A DNA stretch of 62,877 bases, filler included. It is 8 parts of 8 records of this genome, joined end to end, with 100 filler letters (N's around TTAATTAATTAA, not from the genome) between each part and the next. Parts side by side here need not be neighbours in the genome. Positions count along the whole stretch, not along the records: positions 43,702 to 51,780 come from SRR7504441_651; 7 more parts are not named here. One strand, 5' to 3'. Below, in pieces: positions 15,118-59,208 of this stretch (positions are counted from its first letter, which is position 1; each line of letters begins with the position of its first letter). A program made the position numbers and the translations under genes. Below the pieces are notes generated by a model. It ran no database searches, was not told where the DNA came from, and was given only the letters and a program-made list of their open reading frames with translations.

Positions 15118-15217
15118 NNNNNNNNNNNNNNNNNNNNNNNNNNNNNNNNNNNNNNNNNNNNTTAATTAATTAANNNNNNNNNNNNNNNNNNNNNNNNNNN
15201 NNNNNNNNNNNNNNNNN
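15118..15217. other. Artificial contig spacer
   Basis: 44 N + TTAATTAATTAA (stops in all six frames) + 44 N. Confidence 0.97.
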
Positions 15218-19960: not shown

Positions 19961-22900
19961 CTACCAAGTCCCTCGCCTTTCTAGCTCTTCGTCGCTTATC
20001 ACCGAGACTTGATCGCTACCTACCCGACGATGCCGGGCTTGCGTCAAGACGGAGTGCACGTGAGTACGGGCAAGTACAGCCTCGCGTGAATCATCAGGCA
20101 GCATCTTGTGTAACTGAAGATCGCGCACTCTATTCACTCTGATGATGTCAGCCGCGCGTGGGTAGTAACACTGAACAACGGCGGCTCGCAGATATGCAGG
20201 AAGCAATCCGATCGCAGAAGAAATCAGGACGAGCAACCAAGCGCTAGCCTCCGAGAACGTCCGTGAAAATGCACCATACATCGAGCCGTTTGTGACGATC
20301 CCTTGCGGGAATAAATTCTCTATGTACACGAACAGAAACCAGAGCCCAAGCGAGCCCCAATAACATAGATGGGTCGGCCAAGTCCAATTGGGTGTCTCCA
20401 GGCCAAGACGAAGAGTGACCAGGACGAGCAAATTCGTGTAAATCATAATCCCGAGCGGGACCTGGTCGAGTGGCTCTCCAGTGCTGAATATGTTGGCGTT
20501 ATGGTGGAGCCCTGCGACTGCGAAGCACACCAGGCTCGCATAGATGGACTCAACAATCCAGAATAAAAATCTGGTTGTGTTGAGAAAGGCATTGCGTTGG
20601 CCAGTGTGATAAATCTCTGGGTATTGCTGGCACTCATCGTATTTGATGTCTTGTGACAGCATACCAAAGATGATCACTGGCCAGCTCGTGAATGCAAAAT
20701 TGTAAGCTGAGGTGCTCATGTCATCGTACAGGCCATTCCCAGAGAATCCTGCAAGTAGAGTGTAAAACACCAGTGTCATGGCAAAAGAGACGTTCTTATA
20801 GAAAAAATAGCATATCGTGTCGCAAAGCCTTTTGTATGTCCAATGTCCATGCACCAGAAGCAAGCTCGATAGGTCTTTGAACTGGGCGAGTGCAAAGTCA
20901 GAGTTATTGACTGCTTGCGACCCCTCAACTCCAGCGATCCCCACCCCGACATGGGCTTCATTGATCATCCCGACGTCATTGGCACCATCGCCAATGGCAA
21001 GCGTCACTTCTGAAGTCGACGCCTTTACCAGCTTTGTCAAGTCAGCTTTCTGGGCTGGCGACACTCTGCAACACAACACAGCCGCACAATCCATTGTCAG
21101 CGCTATCAATTGCTCCTGAGCTTGCTTTTGTTCATCCCTTTGCTCATCCTGAATCTCGAGTCGACTCTTGGCGTCCCAACCTATCCCCATCGACATCAAT
21201 GCTGATCCACTCACGATCAACGCTCCAACCCCGGGCGTCACCACATGCTGCAGCTGCCTCATCCGCGCTCGCAGTTGGCCAAGACAGGCTGTGTGCCGCT
21301 GCGTGGCCCCGGGAGAGGCTGGCTCGAGCGTCATAACTTGCATCGACGGCTCGAGCAGCTTGCAGGCATACCCGATCTTTTCGGCTGTCTCTGGCTTATC
21401 GCCAGTCAGCACCCACGTCCGGATGTTGGCTGCCCGAAGCTTCTCAAGGGTCGCTGCCACAGCTTCCTGCAATTGGTCCTCGATTGCAGTGGCACCAACA
21501 ACAGCCAGTCCTGCCTCAAGCTCCGCCTCTAAAGGGGACAGCGCTGCGTTCTTTGCTTTAGCCTGCTTATATCTAGCACGCCAAGAAGTAAAGAAGTCTG
21601 CATCGAGAGTCTTCTGCGCAACTAAGAGCGTGCGGAGCCCCTGGCTTGCAAACGCATCAATGTCACGTTGAGTGTCTAACATATCGTTTCCGTCCGGTTC
21701 AGCAAGAAGCCCACGGACCACAGTGTCAGCACCCTTGGTGATGAGCAACAGCTTGGAGCCCTCAGGGTGAGGCGTTCTGACCACTACTGACATTCGCTTC
21801 CTATCCGACGTGAAGTCTAGTGTTTCTAGCAGAGTGTACTCTACCACCTGTGAGCCTTGGCAAGGTTTACACTCTTCCTGCTCAACCACCTCCAGAGCAA
21901 TCCGTTCCGACCCGTTACTCGTCAGCCGCCGGCCCTGCAGCCTCACCCCGAGATCAGCGGCCGCGGCTACCAGCGCGCCATCATCTGGGCTTGCTGCATT
22001 GTACTGAATTCCGGTAGGCGTGTCGCAGGGTATAACAGTGTGGCACAGCGCCAGCCCAGTCAGCAATGTCCGGAACTGGCTCTCGGCCGGGCTGTCTAGC
22101 CAAGCGTGTCCGTTGACACGGCCGTCATAAAACAGCAGACCCGGATCTTCCCATTCAAACCTCTCCCTGGGCGGTTGCACCGCGACACGCCCACACAGCA
22201 CGGCCTCAGACCGTTCTATCTCCGAGATACCGTGCCCATACACCTCACCAGCCAGCGACAGCCGTAGTAGACTCATCTTGTTCCGAGTGAGCGTGCCAGT
22301 CTTGTCTGATAGGATGCATCGGACCTGGCCAAGCTCCTCGGGGATTGACATGTTCCTGCACTGCGCGCGCTTGCCACTCTCTGCGCAGTGCAGCCGGAGA
22401 TCCCACTTGATGAACAGGGCGTAGAAGAGCTTGAGAAACTCGGTGGTCACATACAGCGACACCGGGACCATATTGGAGAAGAGCATTGTGAATGTGAGGA
22501 AAGAGAGCACCCCGATCAAGACTGTGTTGGTGGTCCCATACCAGTTGATCGCGTACGACTTGCTAAACTCCGGCTGCAGCCCGAGGTACCAGGCCGAGTC
22601 GTGGAACCTGGCCATATAGCAGGCCGATCCGATCGCAGCCCCGGCGCACGCTAGAAACAGCCCGGCAAATATGAACAGCAGCTGGCGGTTCATCGCATGC
22701 TCGACCTTGCTCACCTTGTTCAGCAGCTCCCGCTCGTTGTTCTTCATGATCTTGGTCTCGTGCCCCGTGTACACCACCACCCCCCACACGAATGCAGTGT
22801 TGCGCAGGCTCTGCCCGCGAAGCAGCAAGTTCGCAGCATCCAAGTTGAGGCAACTCGACCCTCCAACGCTCATCCAGCCATGCACCTCGTACAGGTCGCC

Positions 22901-23620
22901 GTTTGGGGGGTCCAGTTCCACTTGCACCGGCAGCTCCGCCAGCTGCTCCGGCGCGCTGAGCCCACTGGTCTCTGGGAAGCATCTGAGCAGCTTTAGGTTG
23001 GTTTCGCCGTCCAGGCTCGACGAATCCACATAGCATACCTGGGACAGCTGGGAGCCTGGCGACATCGGCGAGGCTGTTGACCAGCTCTCGTCCAGCCCCT
23101 CGGTCCGCCGGTCTCCACGAGCGGCCCCCACGGACAGCAGCACCATGTCTGCAGGCACCGGCTCGTCTTGGTCCACTCTTAACAGATCACCCACCGCCAC
23201 CTCGGCCCAGCTGAGCTGCTCCGCCGCCCACACCCCCGAGCTCAGCCGGCGCATCACCCGCGTGCCCCGTCTGTTAGTCCGGCGGTCGTCCAGCGTCCGC
23301 TTCCAGTCCGCGTATCCGTCTTTGAGGGCGGCCAGGGCGAGCACGATCGAGACCGGGGCGATGGTGCTGTAGATGTTGGTCCAGGGAGAGATGGCCGGGA
23401 AGCACACCATCACCGCCAGCAGCAGGAAGTAGACGTTGGCCACCCTGTGGAACTGCTCGAACAGGTTCTTGGGAATAAAGTTGAGCCAGGTGTATTTGGC
23501 GGTCACCACCGAGTTGGTGCAGTACCGATCCTCCTTGGAGGCCGCCCCGGCCACAGTCCGGCGGGGCGGCGAGCGGGGCGGGGCCGCAGCTGCCTCCGCG
23601 CCGAGCAGCCCCTCATTCAT
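19961..23620 (-). CDS. P4-type ATPase (phospholipid flippase, ALA/DRS2 family)
   Basis: TAKYTWLNFIPKNLFEQF, LDGETNLK, VPVSLYV, SDKTGTLT, TGDK, AIGDGANDV and YFFYKN motifs; 1219 aa, intronless. Confidence 0.97.
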   Translation of the reverse strand: MNEGLLGAEAAAAPPRSPPRRTVAGAASKEDRYCTNSVVTAKYTWLNFIPKNLFEQFHRVANVYFLLLAVMVCFPAISPWTNIYSTIAPVSIVLALAALKDGYADWKRTLDDRRTNRRGTRVMRRLSSGVWAAEQLSWAEVAVGDLLRVDQDEPVPADMVLLSVGAARGDRRTEGLDESWSTASPMSPGSQLSQVCYVDSSSLDGETNLKLLRCFPETSGLSAPEQLAELPVQVELDPPNGDLYEVHGWMSVGGSSCLNLDAANLLLRGQSLRNTAFVWGVVVYTGHETKIMKNNERELLNKVSKVEHAMNRQLLFIFAGLFLACAGAAIGSACYMARFHDSAWYLGLQPEFSKSYAINWYGTTNTVLIGVLSFLTFTMLFSNMVPVSLYVTTEFLKLFYALFIKWDLRLHCAESGKRAQCRNMSIPEELGQVRCILSDKTGTLTRNKMSLLRLSLAGEVYGHGISEIERSEAVLCGRVAVQPPRERFEWEDPGLLFYDGRVNGHAWLDSPAESQFRTLLTGLALCHTVIPCDTPTGIQYNAASPDDGALVAAAADLGVRLQGRRLTSNGSERIALEVVEQEECKPCQGSQVVEYTLLETLDFTSDRKRMSVVVRTPHPEGSKLLLITKGADTVVRGLLAEPDGNDMLDTQRDIDAFASQGLRTLLVAQKTLDADFFTSWRARYKQAKAKNAALSPLEAELEAGLAVVGATAIEDQLQEAVAATLEKLRAANIRTWVLTGDKPETAEKIGYACKLLEPSMQVMTLEPASPGATQRHTACLGQLRARMRQLQHVVTPGVGALIVSGSALMSMGIGWDAKSRLEIQDEQRDEQKQAQEQLIALTMDCAAVLCCRVSPAQKADLTKLVKASTSEVTLAIGDGANDVGMINEAHVGVGIAGVEGSQAVNNSDFALAQFKDLSSLLLVHGHWTYKRLCDTICYFFYKNVSFAMTLVFYTLLAGFSGNGLYDDMSTSAYNFAFTSWPVIIFGMLSQDIKYDECQQYPEIYHTGQRNAFLNTTRFLFWIVESIYASLVCFAVAGLHHNANIFSTGEPLDQVPLGIMIYTNLLVLVTLRLGLETPNWTWPTHLCYWGSLGLWFLFVYIENLFPQGIVTNGSMYGAFSRTFSEASAWLLVLISSAIGLLPAYLRAAVVQCYYPRAADIIRVNRVRDLQLHKMLPDDSREAVLARTHVHSVLTQARHRRVGSDQVSVISDEELERRGTW

Positions 23621-23960
23621 CGGTCGCTCAGCGTCGCCGCCCTGGGAAGGGTATTAGCAACCGGCGGGTCCCGGCGGGCGGCTCGAAAGCTTACGTTGAA
23701 GGGTCGCCGCGGAGCTGGATCAAAAGTTTAAGATGGGTTGGGTCCGAGTTTGCAAGGATTTTAAGACAACCAGCTAACATTGTTTACTAATCAATAATCA
23801 ACACCAGCCGCCTGCAAGTTCAACTCGACTATACTTTATTTTGAATCGATTGTCACGGCACCAGGTCCCCCGCAACAAGACATGCACAAATATTCTACTA
23901 CCGGAATTGTTATATTGTCTAACCCTCTCAAGGTCATCAGGACTTGCACTTTTTGAAGTT

Positions 23961-24060
23961 NNNNNNNNNNNNNNNNNNNNNNNNNNNNNNNNNNNNNNNN
24001 NNNNTTAATTAATTAANNNNNNNNNNNNNNNNNNNNNNNNNNNNNNNNNNNNNNNNNNNN
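23961..24060. other. Artificial contig spacer
   Basis: N44-TTAATTAATTAA-N44. Confidence 0.97.
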
Positions 24061-32125: not shown

Positions 32126-32225
32126 NNNNNNNNNNNNNNNNNNNNNNNNNNNNNNNNNNNNNNNNNNNNTTAATTAATTAANNNNNNNNNNNNNNNNNNN
32201 NNNNNNNNNNNNNNNNNNNNNNNNN
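32126..32225. other. Artificial contig spacer
   Basis: N44-TTAATTAATTAA-N44. Confidence 0.97.
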
Positions 32226-39275: not shown

Positions 39276-39375
39276 NNNNNNNNNNNNNNNNNNNNNNNNN
39301 NNNNNNNNNNNNNNNNNNNTTAATTAATTAANNNNNNNNNNNNNNNNNNNNNNNNNNNNNNNNNNNNNNNNNNNN
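39276..39375. other. Artificial contig spacer
   Basis: N44-TTAATTAATTAA-N44. Confidence 0.97.
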
Positions 39376-43601: not shown

Positions 43602-43701
43602 NNNNNNNNNNNNNNNNNNNNNNNNNNNNNNNNNNNNNNNNNNNNTTAATTAATTAANNNNNNNNNNNNNNNNNNNNNNNNNNNNNNNNNNNNNNNNNNN
43701 N
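43602..43701. other. Artificial contig spacer
   Basis: N44-TTAATTAATTAA-N44. Confidence 0.97.
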
Positions 43702-43716
43702 CCCTTCCTAATTTAA

Positions 43717-46700
43717 TTAGGGGAAAACCCAGCGTCCGGAGGCCACCTGCGAGTTCCTGTCGAGCAATATCACACCACTGCTGCTCAGCTCCTCCTGCGA
43801 CAGCTGCGGCGGCACCCCCGGTGCGGATGACAAGGATGACCTTCGATCTGACTGGATCGAAGCTCGCGAGCCAGCCAGCTGCTCCGTATCCGTATCCGAC
43901 CGGTTAGAGTTGATGTAAAGCACGTCACTTGCGTTCCGGATCTGCTCCTCTTCGTAGGTATCATTCCCGAGCGCCCCTCCGAGGTGGTGATCTATGCACT
44001 GCCGAAGCCGGTTGTGCGCCTGCTGCTCCCTGGTCTTGCTCGAGCTCGACAAGTTTCCGTCTTGTATAGACATGTCTATTACCCGCTGGCATCTGTACAT
44101 TGCAGCCCAGTCCCGTCGTATCTCTCTTGGTGCCCTGAACACCATACACAGCGATATCAAGTAACGCTCGCCGCCAAACAAGAGCTTCTGCTCGTGAGCC
44201 TTGGCCATTGTGCTCCCGGCCCGCCACGCAAACTCGACCGCCACGCTGCCATCAGGGCTGGAGCTCTCAGTGAAGGTACCGTCCAGCAGCCGCTTGGACA
44301 ATTCGACTCCGAACTCGTGGAAGAGAGAATCGTGCGGCTGGCCATCGAGCGCGTTCCGCGAGAGCGAAAAGTGGTGCAGATAGCTCTGGTTTTTGAAGTA
44401 GAAACAGTTATTGAACATGTCTTCCACACGACCCAGCAGCCCGTCAAACCAGCGCAGCATCGGCTCATGCTCTGTCGAGGCCAGAGCTGCCTCGAATCGG
44501 CCCTCGGCGATACTGCGCTCGCTTTCGAGCAAACCGGCCGCCAGCATCATTTGTTCGATGCAGTCGTCGCGCACATCATCCAGCATCTGCTCGTACAACT
44601 CCCAGCCTTTCACAGAATCGCAGCACAGACTTCCGAGCAGGTTCACACTTGTGTCCTTCCGCTTGCGAGTGTCCGTCTCTGCGAGCCGCTGGTGTGCCTG
44701 CAGCAACTTCCAGTCAGCACACTCAGGCCTGTAGCCACCGTGCAAAACTGACTATACGGCACAGGGTTGCCGGGCTGCCAGAACTCAGCTCGGTTGTCCC
44801 AACGCTCAGGGTCGAGGAGCTCGCCCTGCTGCGGGTCATTGCACTTGGTTAGATGTGCCTCGCGCAGCCGTTCAAGCCTGCCCCCGTCTTGAGCGCATCC
44901 CGGGCCGCACGCACCAGTCTTGGACGGCCTCGGAACTGAGCTCACCCGATTTGTCGCCGGCTTTGTTGCCGACGGCCTGGGGGCCTTCAGAGATGCAAGT
45001 GTACACTACCTCGTAGAACGCACGGCCCTGCACCGGTCTCAATCAAAGATCGGATTGATCGGGTCACCTTGAGAAGCAGATAGGCCTCTCTGAGCACAGC
45101 AGCTCCGAGGTGCGGCTCACAGTCTTTGCCCTTGAACGCCCGCACTCCGTTCCTCTCCTCCCACTTTCCAACCGGCCCAAACACGATCTTGCCGCTCGAG
45201 TCGCGCTCAACAAACTGGTCGACCGGCTCAAAGATGATCGTGCAGCCAGTCTTGAGCCCTTCAATGATCTTCATGCAGCTTTGCAACAGCTGCAGGAACG
45301 CCTTGTTCGCATTCGCCGCTGTGAGCGGATCTTCGCGTGCCGCCTCAAGCATGGTATCCAGGAAGAGCCGGAAGGCGATGGTATCGCTCTGCGCTTCTTT
45401 GAACTTGTCAAACCTACATAAACTCAGCCAAAACCGGCCGCTCGGCTGGTCTATACTGTACTATACTGTACTGTGCACCGGGTCTTGCACGAGGCAAACC
45501 AGTTGGCGAACAGCTCACGGTCGTAGAATTCGAGCAGTACAGCCATCCCATACACGACCTGGCCTCACTCAGCACTAGCTAGCTCCGACCAGACCGGCGC
45601 ATTGAGCTGATCATAAAAGCAGCTGGCCTTCTTCTGGCTGGCGTCTTCGTCGTTGACGTGCCACGCGTCCGGGTCGCACAGCTGCTGCCACGCGTTGTAC
45701 ATCTGCTTCACTGTCCGGTGCAGCTCGTACACTGACTTGCCGGGCGCGATTTCTCCGAATATCTCAATCCACTGTGCCTCGCTTATGATCTCCACCACGC
45801 TCACCACATTCCGACTCTCGACGTACTGACCGGACTGGAAGGTCTGGCCGGCCGGGGCGCACGGCAGCGCATGGTACTGAAATATCAGTTTGAACCCCTG
45901 GTGCAACTCCCTGATCCCTTCGGCGATCATGTGCCGAAAGACCTGCTCCTTGATCCGGTCGACTGTCTTTTTGTACCCCGGCTCGCGCGGCTGCCTGAGC
46001 AACGGGCTTGCCTCGTTGGGCAAGTGCCGCGTCTCCCAGAGAGCTTTGGCGTCCGGCACCAGGAACGTCGAGCATGGGAGAGCCTGAAGCAGCCACTCCT
46101 CTCCGGCCTGGTCCTGCGCGCCCACCCCGATCTCGTGCAGCTGCTTGCCGCCCTCCTCCAGCACCAGCTCCATCCCCGTCACCCCGTGCAGCGCGAAAGA
46201 GGCCAGTTCGTCCATCCGAGCAGACGTGTACGCCGAGAACGTAACCGCCAGGCAGAAATGCCCCTCGAACGCCTCCCTCTCAAGGTTGAGCAGCACACTG
46301 ATAGCCTCCTCCTCGAAGATCGACGCAAACAGCGGCCTCCGGTCAGAGCTGATCGGGCCGTTGCTGTCCTCTTTCGCTGAAGGCTCGACACAGCAGCCGT
46401 TTGGCGCCCACATACAGCCAATCAGGCACTGGGTCCTGAGCGCCTTTGGGTACAAGTCCGAATCGAGCAAATGTTCCAGCTGGTGCGCCACGAACATCCT
46501 CTTGGCTGTGAGCGGCGAGTTTGAGTCTGCTTGCATAGTGAGTAGCGCTCTGCAGGTGGTAAGCTCCTTGATGGCGCCGTTGCGCTTCTCCTTCAGAAAG
46601 TTCTGCTCCCAACGCAGCACGCCGTACTCGAGCACGTGCCTCTTAAAAAACGCGATCAGCTCCCAGGTGCTGTAAAGCCGGTCAGGTCCGGCACCAAACT

Positions 46701-49700
46701 GAAGCTGCAGTTTCTCAAAAAAGATATTATGGTCCCACACCGGGCCGTTGCCCTTTTTGTTGTGGCTTCTCTTGTACTGCTTGGGTCCGGTCCAGCCGTT
46801 CTCGGGGATATTAGGGCTGAAACATCCAGGGAAACCATCCCAGCAGATCTCGTACAACTCGTCCTGGGTGAGCCGCCTCTGCTCGTGATTGAGCATCTGA
46901 TCGTCAGGCTCCTCCTGCTCCAGCTCGGCTGCCCCACGCGCCCAGTCTGCAGTGCCGCGCTCTTTAATTTTAGTGAGCAGCACCCGCTCGACTACCGCAA
47001 TTGGTGACATGCACACCGGCTTTTCGCAGACGTATCGGCAGTTATTGGAGAGCGTGTACTGGAGCCACAGCTTGAGCTGGAGTGGGACCGCCGCCACAAA
47101 CACGAAGAGCACCGTAGCGCAGGTGATCACACCAGTACACATCTGGGCGGACCCAAACAAGAAGTCGTTGTCGGGCAGAATGGTGGCCGCAACTCCCCAG
47201 ATCAGGAGCACGAACGCTGCGAGCAAGACGCAGCCACCTGCCGAATTGGACGAGACGATACCTTTATGGAAGTCGAAGGCGCCCGAGTCGTTGTGATGAA
47301 AGACAAACACTGGCAGCAGGAAGACGCTGGTATAAGACCAGCCGGAGAAGTTGCGCGACATCGTGAGAGCAAGGCAGAGCAAGATCACTGTAAAACTCCA
47401 GCAGACGGCGGTGAGGTAAAACATGACGCGATGCGCACGGCTGTGATTGCCCTTAGACTCGGCCCAAAAATGCATTGAAAGCACCGCGCCACCGATTAGA
47501 GCTACCACCAAGAGGATTCCCACTATCAACCCCCAGTTGTGATCCCAGAACTCGCCAAGCCAGCTGGAGCACCCGTTCTCCTGCTCCTCTTCCTCCTGCG
47601 TAATCAGACTGTCCACCTCGATCTCTTCATCCTCTGGCTGCGGATCGCTTTTGGGCGCTGCCAGTGTAAGCTGTCTCTTGAGCTGCTTAGCCGGCTGTGG
47701 CTGGGCCGCCAGATCGACCTCCGACCCCGGCGTGTCAAGCAGCTCGCCAAGTTGCAAGTAAGCCATCCGCTTGCGCCGCCGTTCGCTGTTCTGATGGCGC
47801 TTGTGCAGCCGAGTCAGTTGTTCAGTCGAGCGAGACACCACTAGCAGCAGCAGCCCGAGCACAGCAAGCCAGCCAGTCGCTCCGGACATGATAATCACGG
47901 TGGTCGTCCTCACCGTGTCGCCGTTACCATACACTTGCTTGCTCCACATGTAAACTCCCACGAGCATGCCCACAAACGGGATCAGCCAGACCTTGCTCGC
48001 GTTGGCCAAGACAGTGTTGTCCTTCCAGCCTGGCATGCGCGGCCGGAGTAGCATCAGCACGACGCACAGAACCAGGTACCAGAGCGACGTGATCGTAGGC
48101 ATCCCCCACAAGCCTTCATCTATCCAAAGCGCGAGGTTGAGGATGATTGCCAGCACAAGCCCTTGCACCAAAAGGTCGTCCAGGAAGGAGTTGGCTTGCT
48201 TGTGGGCCAGCGCCCGCACAATTGGCAGCACCGAGCTCAGCACTACAATCATCGTGGTGCCTGTCCACATAGCCTCGGCCGCGTCCATGAACACAAATGT
48301 AGCTGCAACCCAGGCCACAAACGCGCCCGCCCCTACCAGCGTGAGCACCATATTCTGCTTGTCTCGTGTGCGCATGCTTCCGCTCCGATAGGCGACAAAT
48401 CTGGCGTTGTAGCTGGCGTCGGCCAATCCGGGCGTGTTCCAGAAGTAGTACTTGTTCCTGGCCCACGAACCAAGCACCGCCAGCAGGCAGAGCAGCACCA
48501 CTGGCACGAAGGTGGCCAGCAGCAGGTGCCGCTTGTTGCCCTGGAAGCTGCGACCAAACAATGCGTTGTTGTAGTGTTTATCGTGCCAAACAATATACCC
48601 AAACAGCCCGTCCACCAGCAGCCCGCCCAGCGACCCAATCAACACCCCAAACTTGCTCCGCCTAATAGCTTCTCTGTACCCCGCTACCGCCTTGAGCTTC
48701 TTGTCGCCCTCGGCCAGCCTAGGCCAGCGCCGCTCGGCCTGCGTAATTTTCGCGATCTCGCGGACCCTCTCCGGCCCGAGCAGCTGGTGCTCGGTCAGCG
48801 TGCCCTGCAGCGGGCCCAACTTGACCTTGCCCTGCTGGCCGCACCGCCTGCCGGCGGCCCTGGCCAGCTTATGGCTAGTCAGCTTGGCCGACTTGAGATT
48901 CCGGCCCACACCGGACTGCGAGAAGAAGCTGTGCGCCATCGAGCCAGCCAGCAGTGCCGCGGCCACCTGCTGCCGGGGGCTGCCTCCGTACTGGCTGGCC
49001 GCGTGCTGCGCTCGGAGCGCGATGTAGTCGACGGCCCAGTAGGCCATCAGGTAGAGAGTCGACTTGACTGCCTTGTCAATCATCTTAGGCATGTCGGCAT
49101 CCTCGGGCTCGGCCTCCGCTCTGGCCATCTTGCGCGAGTAGTGCGCTTCTATCCGGTCGCGCACGTTGTACTTGGTCACGTACTCCTGGTCAAACCCCTC
49201 AAAGGCAAACGTGACCAGCTCCTCCAGCCCGGCCTCCTGGCCCTTGACCCTCTTGAGCACCCGCCGCACAAACTCGGCCCAGAGCCGCACAATCGTGAGC
49301 CCCATCAGCTCGGCTGCCACTCGCGGCCGCTCGGACCGCAGCATGTGCCTGCTGTGCTCGAGTGGCATCGCCTGCTCCACCAGCTGGTCCGGCGAGGAGT
49401 CCGGCTGGTCGCGGGCCAGCTCCCTGAGCTTAAGCCGGGCGACGTACTGCTGGTAGGAGAGCGCGTACCTGGGCTGCTTGAGCTCGCCGCGGCTGTTGAG
49501 CTCAGGAGGCCTCTCGCTCCGCCGGGTGAGGTCCTCGCGGATGGCTTGCTCGGCTTGATCGAGCTGCTCGGTTTTGACTGTCCAGCCAATCAGCCCTCCA
49601 TACGACATGGCCTATTACTATTACTGTACTATTGCTGTACTATTCATATTACCTGTCCAGCCAATCAGCCCTCCATACGCCATCGCCCACGAGAACAGCC

Positions 49701-51605
49701 CGAACGCGTACACTAGCACCAGCCAGCCGAGCTGCTCGCGACTAAAGGTCTCGGGCACCGGCCACACCTGGCGCTGGACCTTGGACGGCTCGTATTGATC
49801 CATTAGCGCCGAGTAGAGCACGTGCACCATTGTGGCCATCAGCAGCTGGCGGGCATTGATCAGCAGCTTCCAGTAGAGCAACATTCTGGTCTTCTGCTGC
49901 AGCTCCAGCCGCTGACTGCAGTGCAGCTCGCGCTGCTCAATCGCCTGCTCCAGCTGAGTTGGGTTTAGCCTTTCGTCCATTCGGATCCCTTTGCTCACCA
50001 CCCGCAGTCCGCTCTCGATCTCCTGCGCGTACCCTGCCATCAAGACCATGTGCTCGCGGCACTGAAGCTCTAGAGAGTAGATCCGCGCCTGGAGCAGCTC
50101 CGTGAGCACCATACTGTTACAGTTACTGTTACTATTACATAGTACTATACCTGGAGCAGCTCGGTGGACGTCTGGCTCAGCAGTGATTTGCCCCCGTAGC
50201 AGCACTCCCCCAGGCAGCGCCATAGCCCGAACAGAGCCTCCTGGCACATCCGGCAGCACCAGGCGCCCCCGGCCCCGCGCCTGGCTCGCAGCTCAGCCAC
50301 TATACTATTACTATGACTATGACTATGACTATGACTAATACTATACCTGGCTCGGATCAGCTCACGCTCGCAGCTCAGCCACTCCAAATACCGCTCGTCG
50401 GCCACCAGCTCGGCGATGCTCTGCTCCTTCTGGTAACCGGACCAGAACCCGGCAGACAGCTGGAACGAGAGCCCCCCTGCGAGTAGCAAGTACCAAACCG
50501 GCTCCACCAACTGCCAGCCGCCAATTTCATCGCCACGTGCGTTGAGCCCCAGGTAGATAACAATCATACGGAAGCCTATGACGGTCCAGAACGAGTGGAT
50601 CACCTCGGCGAAGCTGCGGCCGGTGTGGCTCGAAAGGTTGAGTAGCACAAGCAGGTCTGTGACCTGCAGCCACGGATAGACATACATCGCGGACTGCTGA
50701 TGCGAGCTGAGCCACTGGCCGCTTAGCCCGTAGATCAGCAGCGATAGCCCACTCAGGCACCAGGTGGCAAGATAGGCAGAGAATCCCCAACGGCGCTCAC
50801 CGCGCGAGTTGAACGAGCCCCGGCAGTGCAGGCTGTGCGTGTGGTGGTACAGGTAGTCGTTCAGGTCTATTCCGAGGTCGTGGTGGTACTGGAACAAGAT
50901 GACCAGCATCAGCAGCCCCGAGACCAAGAAGAAGAAGATGGCCGTGATGATATCGTCGTACTCATCCACTACCAACGACAGCATCAAGATATAAAGGCAA
51001 AACACCAGCGCTGCGCTCCCCACCCACGCAGCTGTAGTGCTATACACTATCCACTCCCGGAAGTACCACATGAACAGCCCCAGCTTGAACAGCTCGAACG
51101 AGCACAAAAGCGAGAACGAGGCCATCGCCAGCACGTAGCAATGGTCGTACTGCCCGTAATACTCTGACGTCCCATTCCAGCTGAACTCCTGCGGCCCCGC
51201 TTAACACTGACGTTCCGGGGGGCACCCAGTAGTAGGTGTACACCGAGAGCATCATCAGCGCAGCGAACGGGCAGACGGCCATGCTGAACAGGAGCCAGGC
51301 GGACAGCTCCATCCTGCGGCCCAACACTCAGCCAGGCCCAGCCCGGCGATGGCACAGGCAGGTCTCGAACATGCGGCCAAACCAGTCCCAGGTGGCCAGC
51401 CAGGTATACATCCGCCACGGCCTCAGCGAGCCCGAGTAGTAGAGAATCACGGTGGACAGGCAGGACAACCCGACGAAGCATCCGATGTAGGGCGCCGCGA
51501 ACTGGGCCACCGCCTGAGCCACGCGCCAGGGGGGGGGCGGCCCACCTCCCAGTACTCCTGGTACACCAGGTTGCGCGCCGTGTAGAAGCATTGGCTGAGC
51601 GGCAT
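43717..51605 (-). CDS. Very large multi-pass membrane protein of unknown function (multi-exon, >2000 aa)
   Basis: It starts at ATG 51605 (MPLSQCF). ORF fragments join in frame across introns including 51502-51545, 50281-50346, 50089-50150, 49578-49652, 45559-45594 and 45414-45478. There are many hydrophobic helices. Confidence 0.75.
49578..49652 (-). other. 75-nt intron = 40-nt AT-rich filler + 35-nt duplicate of the upstream exon end
   Basis: 49578-49604 is identical to 49653-49679 (27 nt; 33/35 when extended). It has GT..AG ends and an in-frame stop, and splicing gives WT|VKTEQ. Confidence 0.85.
50089..50150 (-). other. 62-nt intron = 46-nt AT-rich filler + 16-nt exon duplicate
   Basis: 50089-50104 matches 50151-50166 at 15/16. 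Splicing gives ELLQ|ARIY and repairs the frame. Confidence 0.85.
50281..50346 (-). other. 66-nt intron = 45-nt AT-rich filler + 21-nt exon duplicate with an internal deletion
   Basis: 50281-50301 equals 50347-50354 + 50371-50383. It has GT..AG ends and is in frame with no stop. Confidence 0.75.
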
Positions 51606-51780
51606 GTTGGGCCGGCCGACGGGTTAGCCTTGGCCTGTGTTACCCCACAGCACCAGTTGCATCTGCTGCGGCAACGGATGCCGCTCAGAAAAAAAGTCAG
51701 TTGCAGCTGACATGTACAGTGTATTCCTGGCTCAGAGATAGACCAGTCATACGTTTTGACTCGGCAAATGTTGAAGAAAT

Positions 51781-51880
51781 NNNNNNNNNNNNNNNNNNNN
51801 NNNNNNNNNNNNNNNNNNNNNNNNTTAATTAATTAANNNNNNNNNNNNNNNNNNNNNNNNNNNNNNNNNNNNNNNNNNNN
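51781..51880. other. Artificial contig spacer
   Basis: N44-TTAATTAATTAA-N44. Confidence 0.97.
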
Positions 51881-59079: not shown

Positions 59080-59179
59080 NNNNNNNNNNNNNNNNNNNNN
59101 NNNNNNNNNNNNNNNNNNNNNNNTTAATTAATTAANNNNNNNNNNNNNNNNNNNNNNNNNNNNNNNNNNNNNNNNNNNN
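59080..59179. other. Artificial contig spacer
   Basis: N44-TTAATTAATTAA-N44. Confidence 0.97.
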
Positions 59180-59208
59180 GGGGGGGGGGGGGGGGGGGGG
59201 GGGGTTAC

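Follow-up and report, generated by a model that had tools for sequence, protein, structure and literature searches.

Host gene and anatomy of the three inserts

The window, i.e., the whole stretch of DNA analysed here, comprises 62.9 kb and consists of eight contigs joined by N44-TTAATTAATTAA-N44 linkers, so it is not one continuous piece of a chromosome. One of these contigs (43702-51780) is almost wholly occupied by a single minus-strand gene, in which three short inserts were identified (I1, I2 and I3). All three inserts are located on the minus strand within 770 bp and start with GT at the 5' end and end with AG at the 3' end (3/3). They share one layout, in which an exon end (X-CAG) is followed by a filler starting with GTA, a second copy of the exon end (X'-CAG) and the rest of the exon. 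The gene and the parts of the inserts are located as follows:

43723..51639, minus strand: host gene, at least 2459 codons after removal of nine inferred introns (the three inserts and six other GT-AG segments)
50347..50383, minus strand: exon end upstream of I1, source of the copy; its 18-mer 50366-50383 is repeated exactly in I1
50281..50346, minus strand: I1, 66 nt, phase 2, in frame, no stop codon
50346..50302, minus strand: I1 filler, 45 nt, 73% AT; GTATAG TATTAG (TCATAG)x4 TAATAG TAT
50301..50281, minus strand: I1 exon copy, exact 18-mer (50284-50301 = 50366-50383) plus CAG
50151..50171, minus strand: exon end upstream of I2 (..CACCGAGCTGCTCCAG), source of the I2 copy; 17 nt, 94%
50089..50150, minus strand: I2, 62 nt, phase 0, frame shift if retained
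50150..50110, minus strand: I2 filler, 41 nt, 71% AT
50109..50089, minus strand: I2 exon copy, repeat of 17 nt at 94% (50088-50104 vs 50150-50166), about 21 nt on a looser alignment
49653..49687, minus strand: exon end upstream of I3, source of the 35-nt copy; 2 mismatches
49578..49652, minus strand: I3, 75 nt, phase 1, in-frame stop codon
49652..49613, minus strand: I3 filler, 40 nt, 75% AT
49612..49578, minus strand: I3 exon copy, 35 nt at 94% vs 49653-49687, 27 nt exact

An earlier note on this DNA had described three minus-strand inserts at these positions, with GT...AG ends and with a filler joined to a copy of the exon end, and all of this was confirmed in the sequence. The duplicated peptides YGGLIGWT and TELLQ, which were mentioned there as well, are visible in the list of open reading frames. 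The fillers have a length of 40-45 nt and an AT content of 71-75% and are built from units such as TAATAG, TCATAG, TAACAG and TACAG. The whole filler introns contain 58-61% AT, in contrast to 39.6% in the exons of the host gene. The length of the duplication is 21 nt in I1 (37 nt before a loss of 16 nt), 17-21 nt in I2 and 35 nt in I3. The 16 nt that are missing in the I1 copy (50350-50365) are found in the exon between two CGAGC words. I1 and I2 are located 196 nt apart and have both filler ends in common, the last 9 nt being similar, whereas the termini of I3 differ; the filler interiors differ among all copies. Judged by this anatomy, an insert together with a target duplicate that terminates in the acceptor, the footprint corresponds to an insertion event.

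Terminal inverted repeats were not found at the ends of the three introns, and none of the three folds better than its shuffled controls (z 0.15, -0.45 and 0.62). A hairpin or a structure like that of miniature inverted-repeat transposable elements was rejected on these two grounds. An alternative donor, GTGAGC upstream of I1, would result in an intron of 85 nt and was rejected because it breaks the frame.

Chance controls and further copies

The repeats in the inserts are far beyond chance. Exact direct repeats of at least 12 nt at a spacing of 40-120 nt form 17 runs in the window, whereas 50 third-order Markov simulations gave 0.62 on average. The longest direct repeat in the simulations had 13 nt, and the exact repeats of the introns have 27 nt (I3), 18 nt (I1) and 13 nt (I2). 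A search for (TAATAG)3 with up to 3 mismatches resulted in 6 overlapping matches, all of them within the three inserts, and in 0 matches in 100 shuffles. Clusters of at least 3 YAGTA words occur at 3 places (I2, I3 and 45473..45454), all of which belong to the minus strand of the host gene.

The combination of filler and exon copy is absent from seven further short-range repeats of the window that were examined. TAATAG-like arrays or copies of the inserts outside the host gene were not detected in the eight contigs. In addition, viral_contigs was scanned with a 15-mer common to I1 and I2. This revealed 106 stretches (81 listed). Among the matches listed, none of those screened shows the architecture; all of them are AT-rich and match by chance, having 3 YAGTA words at most and no copy of an exon that exceeds 10 nt. 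Within the host gene, one further repeat resembles the fillers:

45454..45473, minus strand: fourth filler-like repeat, (GTACAGTATA)x2, inside a probable 155-nt intron (45568..45414); unit of the same kind as in I3

This fourth repeat (45473..45454) sits in the interior of the intron, and no exon copy was seen beside it. The probable intron follows a TGA at 45565 and would allow the frame to continue beyond it. Several donor/acceptor pairs hold the frame here and the borders are uncertain.

The inserts as probable introns

Removal of the nine introns yields one uninterrupted open reading frame of 2459 codons (51639..43723). Among the six segments removed in addition to I1-I3, two mini-introns named Na and Nb (see below) are backed by colinearity with a homologue (tblastn 2e-65), and the other four were picked to hold the frame open. 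Retention of I2 would shift the frame and I3 contains an in-frame stop codon. Since I1 keeps the frame and contains no stop codon, its removal is not demanded by the frame.

As homologues of the host gene, P0121-P0124 and the contig L001 were found. The spliced conceptual product aligns to P0122, P0123 and P0124 gap-free across the junctions of I2 and I3, and only a 3-residue indel is seen beside I1. L001 is colinear throughout with the spliced form of the gene, again without a gap at the junctions of I2 and I3. The 22 residues that are expected from a retained I1 occur in none of P0122, P0123, P0124 and L001. The statement in the earlier note that splicing leaves no scar in the protein therefore holds. 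L001 itself contains a one-base frameshift (614-617) and a TGA (1880-1882) where the transcript-derived P0122 has Cys. It is either a low-quality contig or a variant allele, and an origin from complementary DNA (cDNA) is possible, so it does not date the introns.

The region was also compared with contigs of four out of 24 public runs, namely X1 (marine metagenome DNA) and X12, X15 and X18 (RNA). One DNA contig of X1 covers 49991-50297 and includes the whole of I2 with both repeat copies as well as the I1 copy, and a second one covers 49466-49650 with the I3 copy and nearly all of the I3 filler. The first contig differs from the window by 3 substitutions (50192, 50223 and 50251). All of them fall into the Cys-rich exon of 130 nt that separates I1 from I2, and both I2 and the 98 nt of exon 3 present in this contig are free of substitutions. 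These substitutions identify it as a slightly different allele. The X1 contigs argue against an artefact of assembly or amplification. Sequence spanning both copies, to which the earlier note had pointed, was obtained for I2, and I1 and I3 are bridged by no X1 contig. A DNA contig lacking an insert was not seen among the X1 contigs. Four contigs from the RNA libraries match exon parts only (48935-49218, 49177-49424 and 50689-50895), with at least 99% identity, and gave no spliced joint.

The exon copies carry the branch-like motifs CTGAG, CTCAC and CTGAT (3/3), as already described in the earlier note, and the distance from the A to the junction is 12-14 nt. Of the 148 CAG sites of the coding strand, 16 are preceded by a YTSA motif whose A lies 12-18 nt from the junction, and all three target sites have such a motif, which was a post hoc choice. 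A similar branch motif was found in 3 of five inferred mini-introns. Taken together, frame restoration and colinearity with the homologues indicate indirectly but consistently that I1-I3 are introns.

Comparison with known routes of intron gain

The new introns of Daphnia pulex, called neointrons, reportedly originate from the repair of staggered double-strand breaks, as put forward by Li et al. in 2009. The accessible parts of PMC4202315, PMC8355091, PMC12130899, PMC3296678 and PMC11782384 form the basis for the comparison with published systems given here. In Daphnia, 120 new introns were described in 85 genes, often several per gene. They have a length of about 78 bp and an AT content of 78% compared with 55% in exons, are rich in internal repeats and carry a 4-12 bp repeat of the adjacent exon end at the far intron end, which was ascribed to staggered breaks (PMC4202315). 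I1-I3 are similarly short (62-75 nt), far more AT-rich than the exons and bordered by GT and AG. As in Daphnia, they are full of short internal repeats, have motifs in common among the new introns and occur several times in a gene. They differ in the exon repeat, which has 21-37 nt and a branch-like motif here instead of 4-12 bp, and in the filler, which is a reiterated hexamer family here and contains A/T runs there. Furthermore, the Daphnia introns were proven by presence/absence alleles and cDNA, whereas I1-I3 are known from DNA alone. By this comparison, I1-I3 fit the Daphnia type on every feature tested except the repeat length.

Long duplications of this kind are known from another context. 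When paired nicks left 43-nt overhangs, fill-in followed by end joining mostly resulted in small tandem duplications (PMC8355091). As proposed for I1-I3, the nicks are tens of bases apart and the stretch between them is duplicated, sometimes with extra changes. However, this is an experimental class of mutations in mammalian cells, which in the accessible part of the report has no link to introns and needs no filler of 40-45 nt.

Introners that co-opt a target-site duplication have duplications of 3-9 bp with a fixed length per family (PMC9860276; bioRxiv 10.1101/2020.10.14.339549). In the introners of Chrysochromulina, the element carries the 5' splice site and the duplication gives the 3' splice site, and introners are common in aquatic protists. 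As in I1-I3, one splice site comes with the insert and the other from the duplicated target, and the message is unchanged. In contrast, introner families consist of tens to thousands of similar copies, and many of the families have terminal inverted repeats (PMC9860276; bioRxiv 10.1101/2020.10.14.339549; PMC12130899). I1-I3 show neither a fixed duplication of 3-9 bp nor such repeats, and all copies in the window are found in one gene.

In the model of Rogers, introns are gained by tandem duplication of an exon segment that holds AGGT (PMC3296678). The 3' part of the intron then repeats the upstream exon end, and the AG of the exon itself serves as acceptor, as seen here. The 5' part, however, repeats the start of the downstream exon in that model, whereas I1-I3 have an AT-rich filler in this place that is unrelated to the downstream exon starts GCGCGG.. 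and TCAAAAC... A catalogue covering different intron classes exists for direct repeats of 4-30 bp close to intron borders (PMC11782384). An exon-end copy of 20-37 nt joined to a hexamer filler was not found in literature outside subscription journals and supplements, which is weak evidence of absence.

The interpretation in the earlier note was upheld with respect to intron behaviour and the footprint of an insertion. Its remark that the architecture is not recognised from described systems is not supported in this form, since the Daphnia neointrons, as far as described in the accessible part of PMC4202315, and the introners co-opting a target-site duplication (PMC9860276) follow the same logic. 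By analogy, I1-I3 clearly exemplify a route to new introns that is already known, and not a new mechanism. New are the duplication of 21-37 nt, its likely role as source of the branch site, the filler of reiterated hexamers and the occurrence of three cases in 770 bp.

Origin of the inserts

We assume that I1-I3 are young spliceosomal introns of the U2 type, each formed by an AT-rich insertion together with duplication of the 21-37 nt upstream, probably in the course of staggered-break repair. We assign a probability of about 0.5 to this reading. A short AT-rich sequence of reiterated TAATAG-like units would have entered the coding strand at ..CAG|G/T. Two nicks in opposite strands, 21-37 nt apart, would have left overhangs which were filled in before the ends were joined with the filler. 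The filler, starting with GTA, would provide the donor, and the second copy of the exon end would provide the branch-like motif and the CAG acceptor. Splicing would take out the filler and the second copy, and the original message would be exactly restored. Selection may have kept only those duplications that were long enough for a usable branch site and acceptor, which would account for their unusual length. By comparison with Daphnia, this break route is most likely the neointron route with much longer overhangs. The enzymes proposed in the earlier note (RT tail, telomerase-like or Pol theta-like) are hypothetical candidates for the synthesis of the filler.

Several observations speak against young, spliced introns formed by break repair. 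The homologues may be cDNA, and L001 is free of the ordinary introns as well. An intron-less allele was found neither in the homologue searches nor among the contigs of the public runs. X1 is possibly the sample from which the window was derived, and its contigs bridge only I2 across both repeat copies. No RNA contig of the runs X12, X15 and X18 crosses any junction, where uncovered parts prove nothing, and the RNA-library contigs that match exons could represent carry-over of DNA. The test of the branch motif was defined after the data had been seen. The copies are imperfect, with mismatches at 2 of 35 and 1 of 17 positions and a 16-nt gap in I1, and there are only three cases, all within one gene. 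Moreover, the first 11 nt, CAGGTATAGTA, are common to I1 and I2 (2 matches in the window, 0.24 expected). The two introns also have the acceptor context CCAG|GCGCGG in common (50275-50284 and 50083-50092; 3 in the window, 0.42 expected), which may reflect a site preference or chance. The common first 11 nt and CCAG|GCGCGG are not predicted by random breaks; a site-preferring element or local templating would predict them.

Such an element is possible, albeit with a clearly smaller chance than break repair. I1-I3 could be copies of a tiny non-autonomous element, or the 3' repeat tail of an element without long terminal repeats (non-LTR), that was placed by target-primed reverse transcription and forms an introner-like family. 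Synthesis of GTATAGTA... would then be primed by a nick at CAG|G, and the variable and long duplication would stem from another nick at a distance of 21-37 nt. Target-primed insertions give duplications of variable length. Such variation (21-37 nt) is present in I1-I3, the filler being only a candidate for the tail of an element. The ends and the acceptor context common to I1 and I2 point in this direction as well, and so does the fact that all fillers derive from one unit family on one strand. Non-LTR-derived introners have been reported and account for about 5% of the classified families in the accessible part of PMC12130899, and introners are also described in which the donor belongs to the element and the duplication is co-opted as acceptor (PMC9860276). 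On the other hand, there are no copies beyond the host gene in the eight contigs, neither a reverse-transcriptase gene nor a longer element was seen in the window, and the stretches screened among the matches listed from viral_contigs are without the architecture. The termini of I3 and the interiors of the fillers differ between the copies, and introner duplications as described are short (3-9 bp) and of fixed length. An undescribed, dedicated process appears doubtful. Here, starting from a nick at a proto-splice site (..CAG|G), a short template would be copied again and again to form (TAATAG)-like repeats that always start with GTA, and a second cut in the opposite strand 21-37 nt upstream would duplicate enough of the exon for a branch site and an acceptor. 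Such a 'tail-only' retro-introner or telomerase-like filler would bring only the donor, take the whole 3' half of the intron from its host and tend to re-insert locally. Local templating could also mean that one seed intron arose first and that its filler was copied during the repair of later breaks nearby, by templated insertion or template switching, with spread only within the gene. The position of all four filler-like repeats on the same strand and in 5 kb of a single gene agrees with such a seed, as do I1 and I2 with their small distance and common filler ends, each copy nevertheless having its own local exon duplication. We consider it improbable, however, since the filler interiors differ, (TCATAG)4 in one case and TAACAG/TAACTG units in another; one genome sample cannot separate it from the break-repair or mobile-element routes.

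It was also considered whether the inserts are introns at all. They might be artefacts of assembly or amplification, or insertions that are kept in the transcript of a decaying gene. The window is a linker-joined draft, junction-spanning RNA is missing among the RNA contigs and I1 is in frame without a stop, all of which would be in line with this explanation. It is nevertheless very improbable, because the metagenome contigs carry the whole of I2 and parts of I1 and I3, in one case with 3 substitutions. In addition, the GT starts and AG ends are placed exactly where removal restores the frame (3/3), the rest of the frame of 2459 codons is intact and the RNA-library contigs match the exons at 99% or more. 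Elimination at the DNA level, with the direct repeats serving as pointers like in the internal eliminated sequences of ciliates, would equally leave one copy and the same product from short AT-rich inserts between direct repeats. Such an origin is hardly conceivable here: it leaves the GT-AG ends unexplained, the genome is GC-rich and uses all three stop codons, the same gene contains ordinary GT-AG mini-introns, and X1 yielded no DNA contig without an insert.

Significance

The sources of new spliceosomal introns are still debated, and apart from Daphnia and the introner families few clean footprints are known. With young introns from break repair as the favoured origin of I1-I3, confirmation of their splicing would mean that the complete 3' half of an intron, with branch site and acceptor, can be donated by a long target duplication of ordinary coding sequence. 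Only GT and some AT-rich length would then have to come from the insert. Intron gain would thereby be documented in an unsampled lineage of marine protists in which the usual introns have only 37-42 nt, and the break-repair model from Daphnia would extend to a distant lineage. The common filler ends and the context CCAG|GCGCGG offer a handle on a site-preferring element or enzyme. On the basis of three cases, I1-I3 make the origin of the 3' half of a new intron testable.

Other introns of the host gene

Besides the inserts, the host gene contains GT-AG segments of a different kind:

51314..51355, minus strand: Na, ordinary GC-rich mini-intron, 42 nt, 26% AT, GTGCC...GGCCGCAG; colinear with L001 after removal
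51189..51225, minus strand: Nb, ordinary GC-rich mini-intron, 37 nt, 30% AT; colinear with L001 after removal
44757..44729, minus strand: candidate intron, 29 nt, starts with GTATAGTCAG, which equals the first six bases of I1 and I2; joins two frames

Na and Nb both start with GTGCC and end with AGTGTT..GGCCGCAG. The further inferred introns have 40, 37 and 29 nt, and one has 155 nt. The 29-nt candidate (44757..44729) is very short for a spliceosomal intron. A similar 37-nt segment, GTGCGTGCC...GGCCGCAG, was found on another contig (57622..57586, minus strand). Very short introns seem to be usual in the organism, and they may form a look-alike family themselves. Compared with Na and Nb, which have 37-42 nt and 26-30% AT, the three filler introns are a distinct class, being longer and foreign in composition.

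Host gene product and source organism

Many hydrophobic stretches suggest that the host gene encodes a membrane protein. A Pfam family was not found for three pieces of the gene, and Rfam gave nothing on the host contig (43702-51780) at E values up to 1. An open reading frame of 1336 aa from the gene matched no protein of 734-2338 aa, so a full-length relative was not obtained. For exon 3, a search against 1.84 billion representatives revealed only two distant clusters (E 1.7e-6 and 4.3e-6), to which P0122, P0123 and P0124 belong, and no locus was found in metagenome_contigs.

The source organism seems to be an uncultured marine protist from a lineage without a close sequenced relative. Its genome is GC-rich and all three stop codons act as stops. 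On another contig, an intron-less gene for a phospholipid flippase (P4-ATPase) of 1230 aa is located at 19964-23653 on the minus strand. Its best match among 5.8 billion proteins is only 53% identical, which indicates that the organism has no close sequenced relative.

The linkers between the contigs are located as follows:

15118-15217, 23961-24060, 32126-32225, 39276-39375, 43602-43701, 51781-51880 and 59080-59179: N44-TTAATTAATTAA-N44, six-frame stop spacer

For genes on the two sides of a linker, neither adjacency nor an origin from a single genome is shown; the GC content per piece is 54-64%. The last contig starts directly after its linker with a run of 25 G (59180-59204), which is probably an end artefact of sequencing or assembly.

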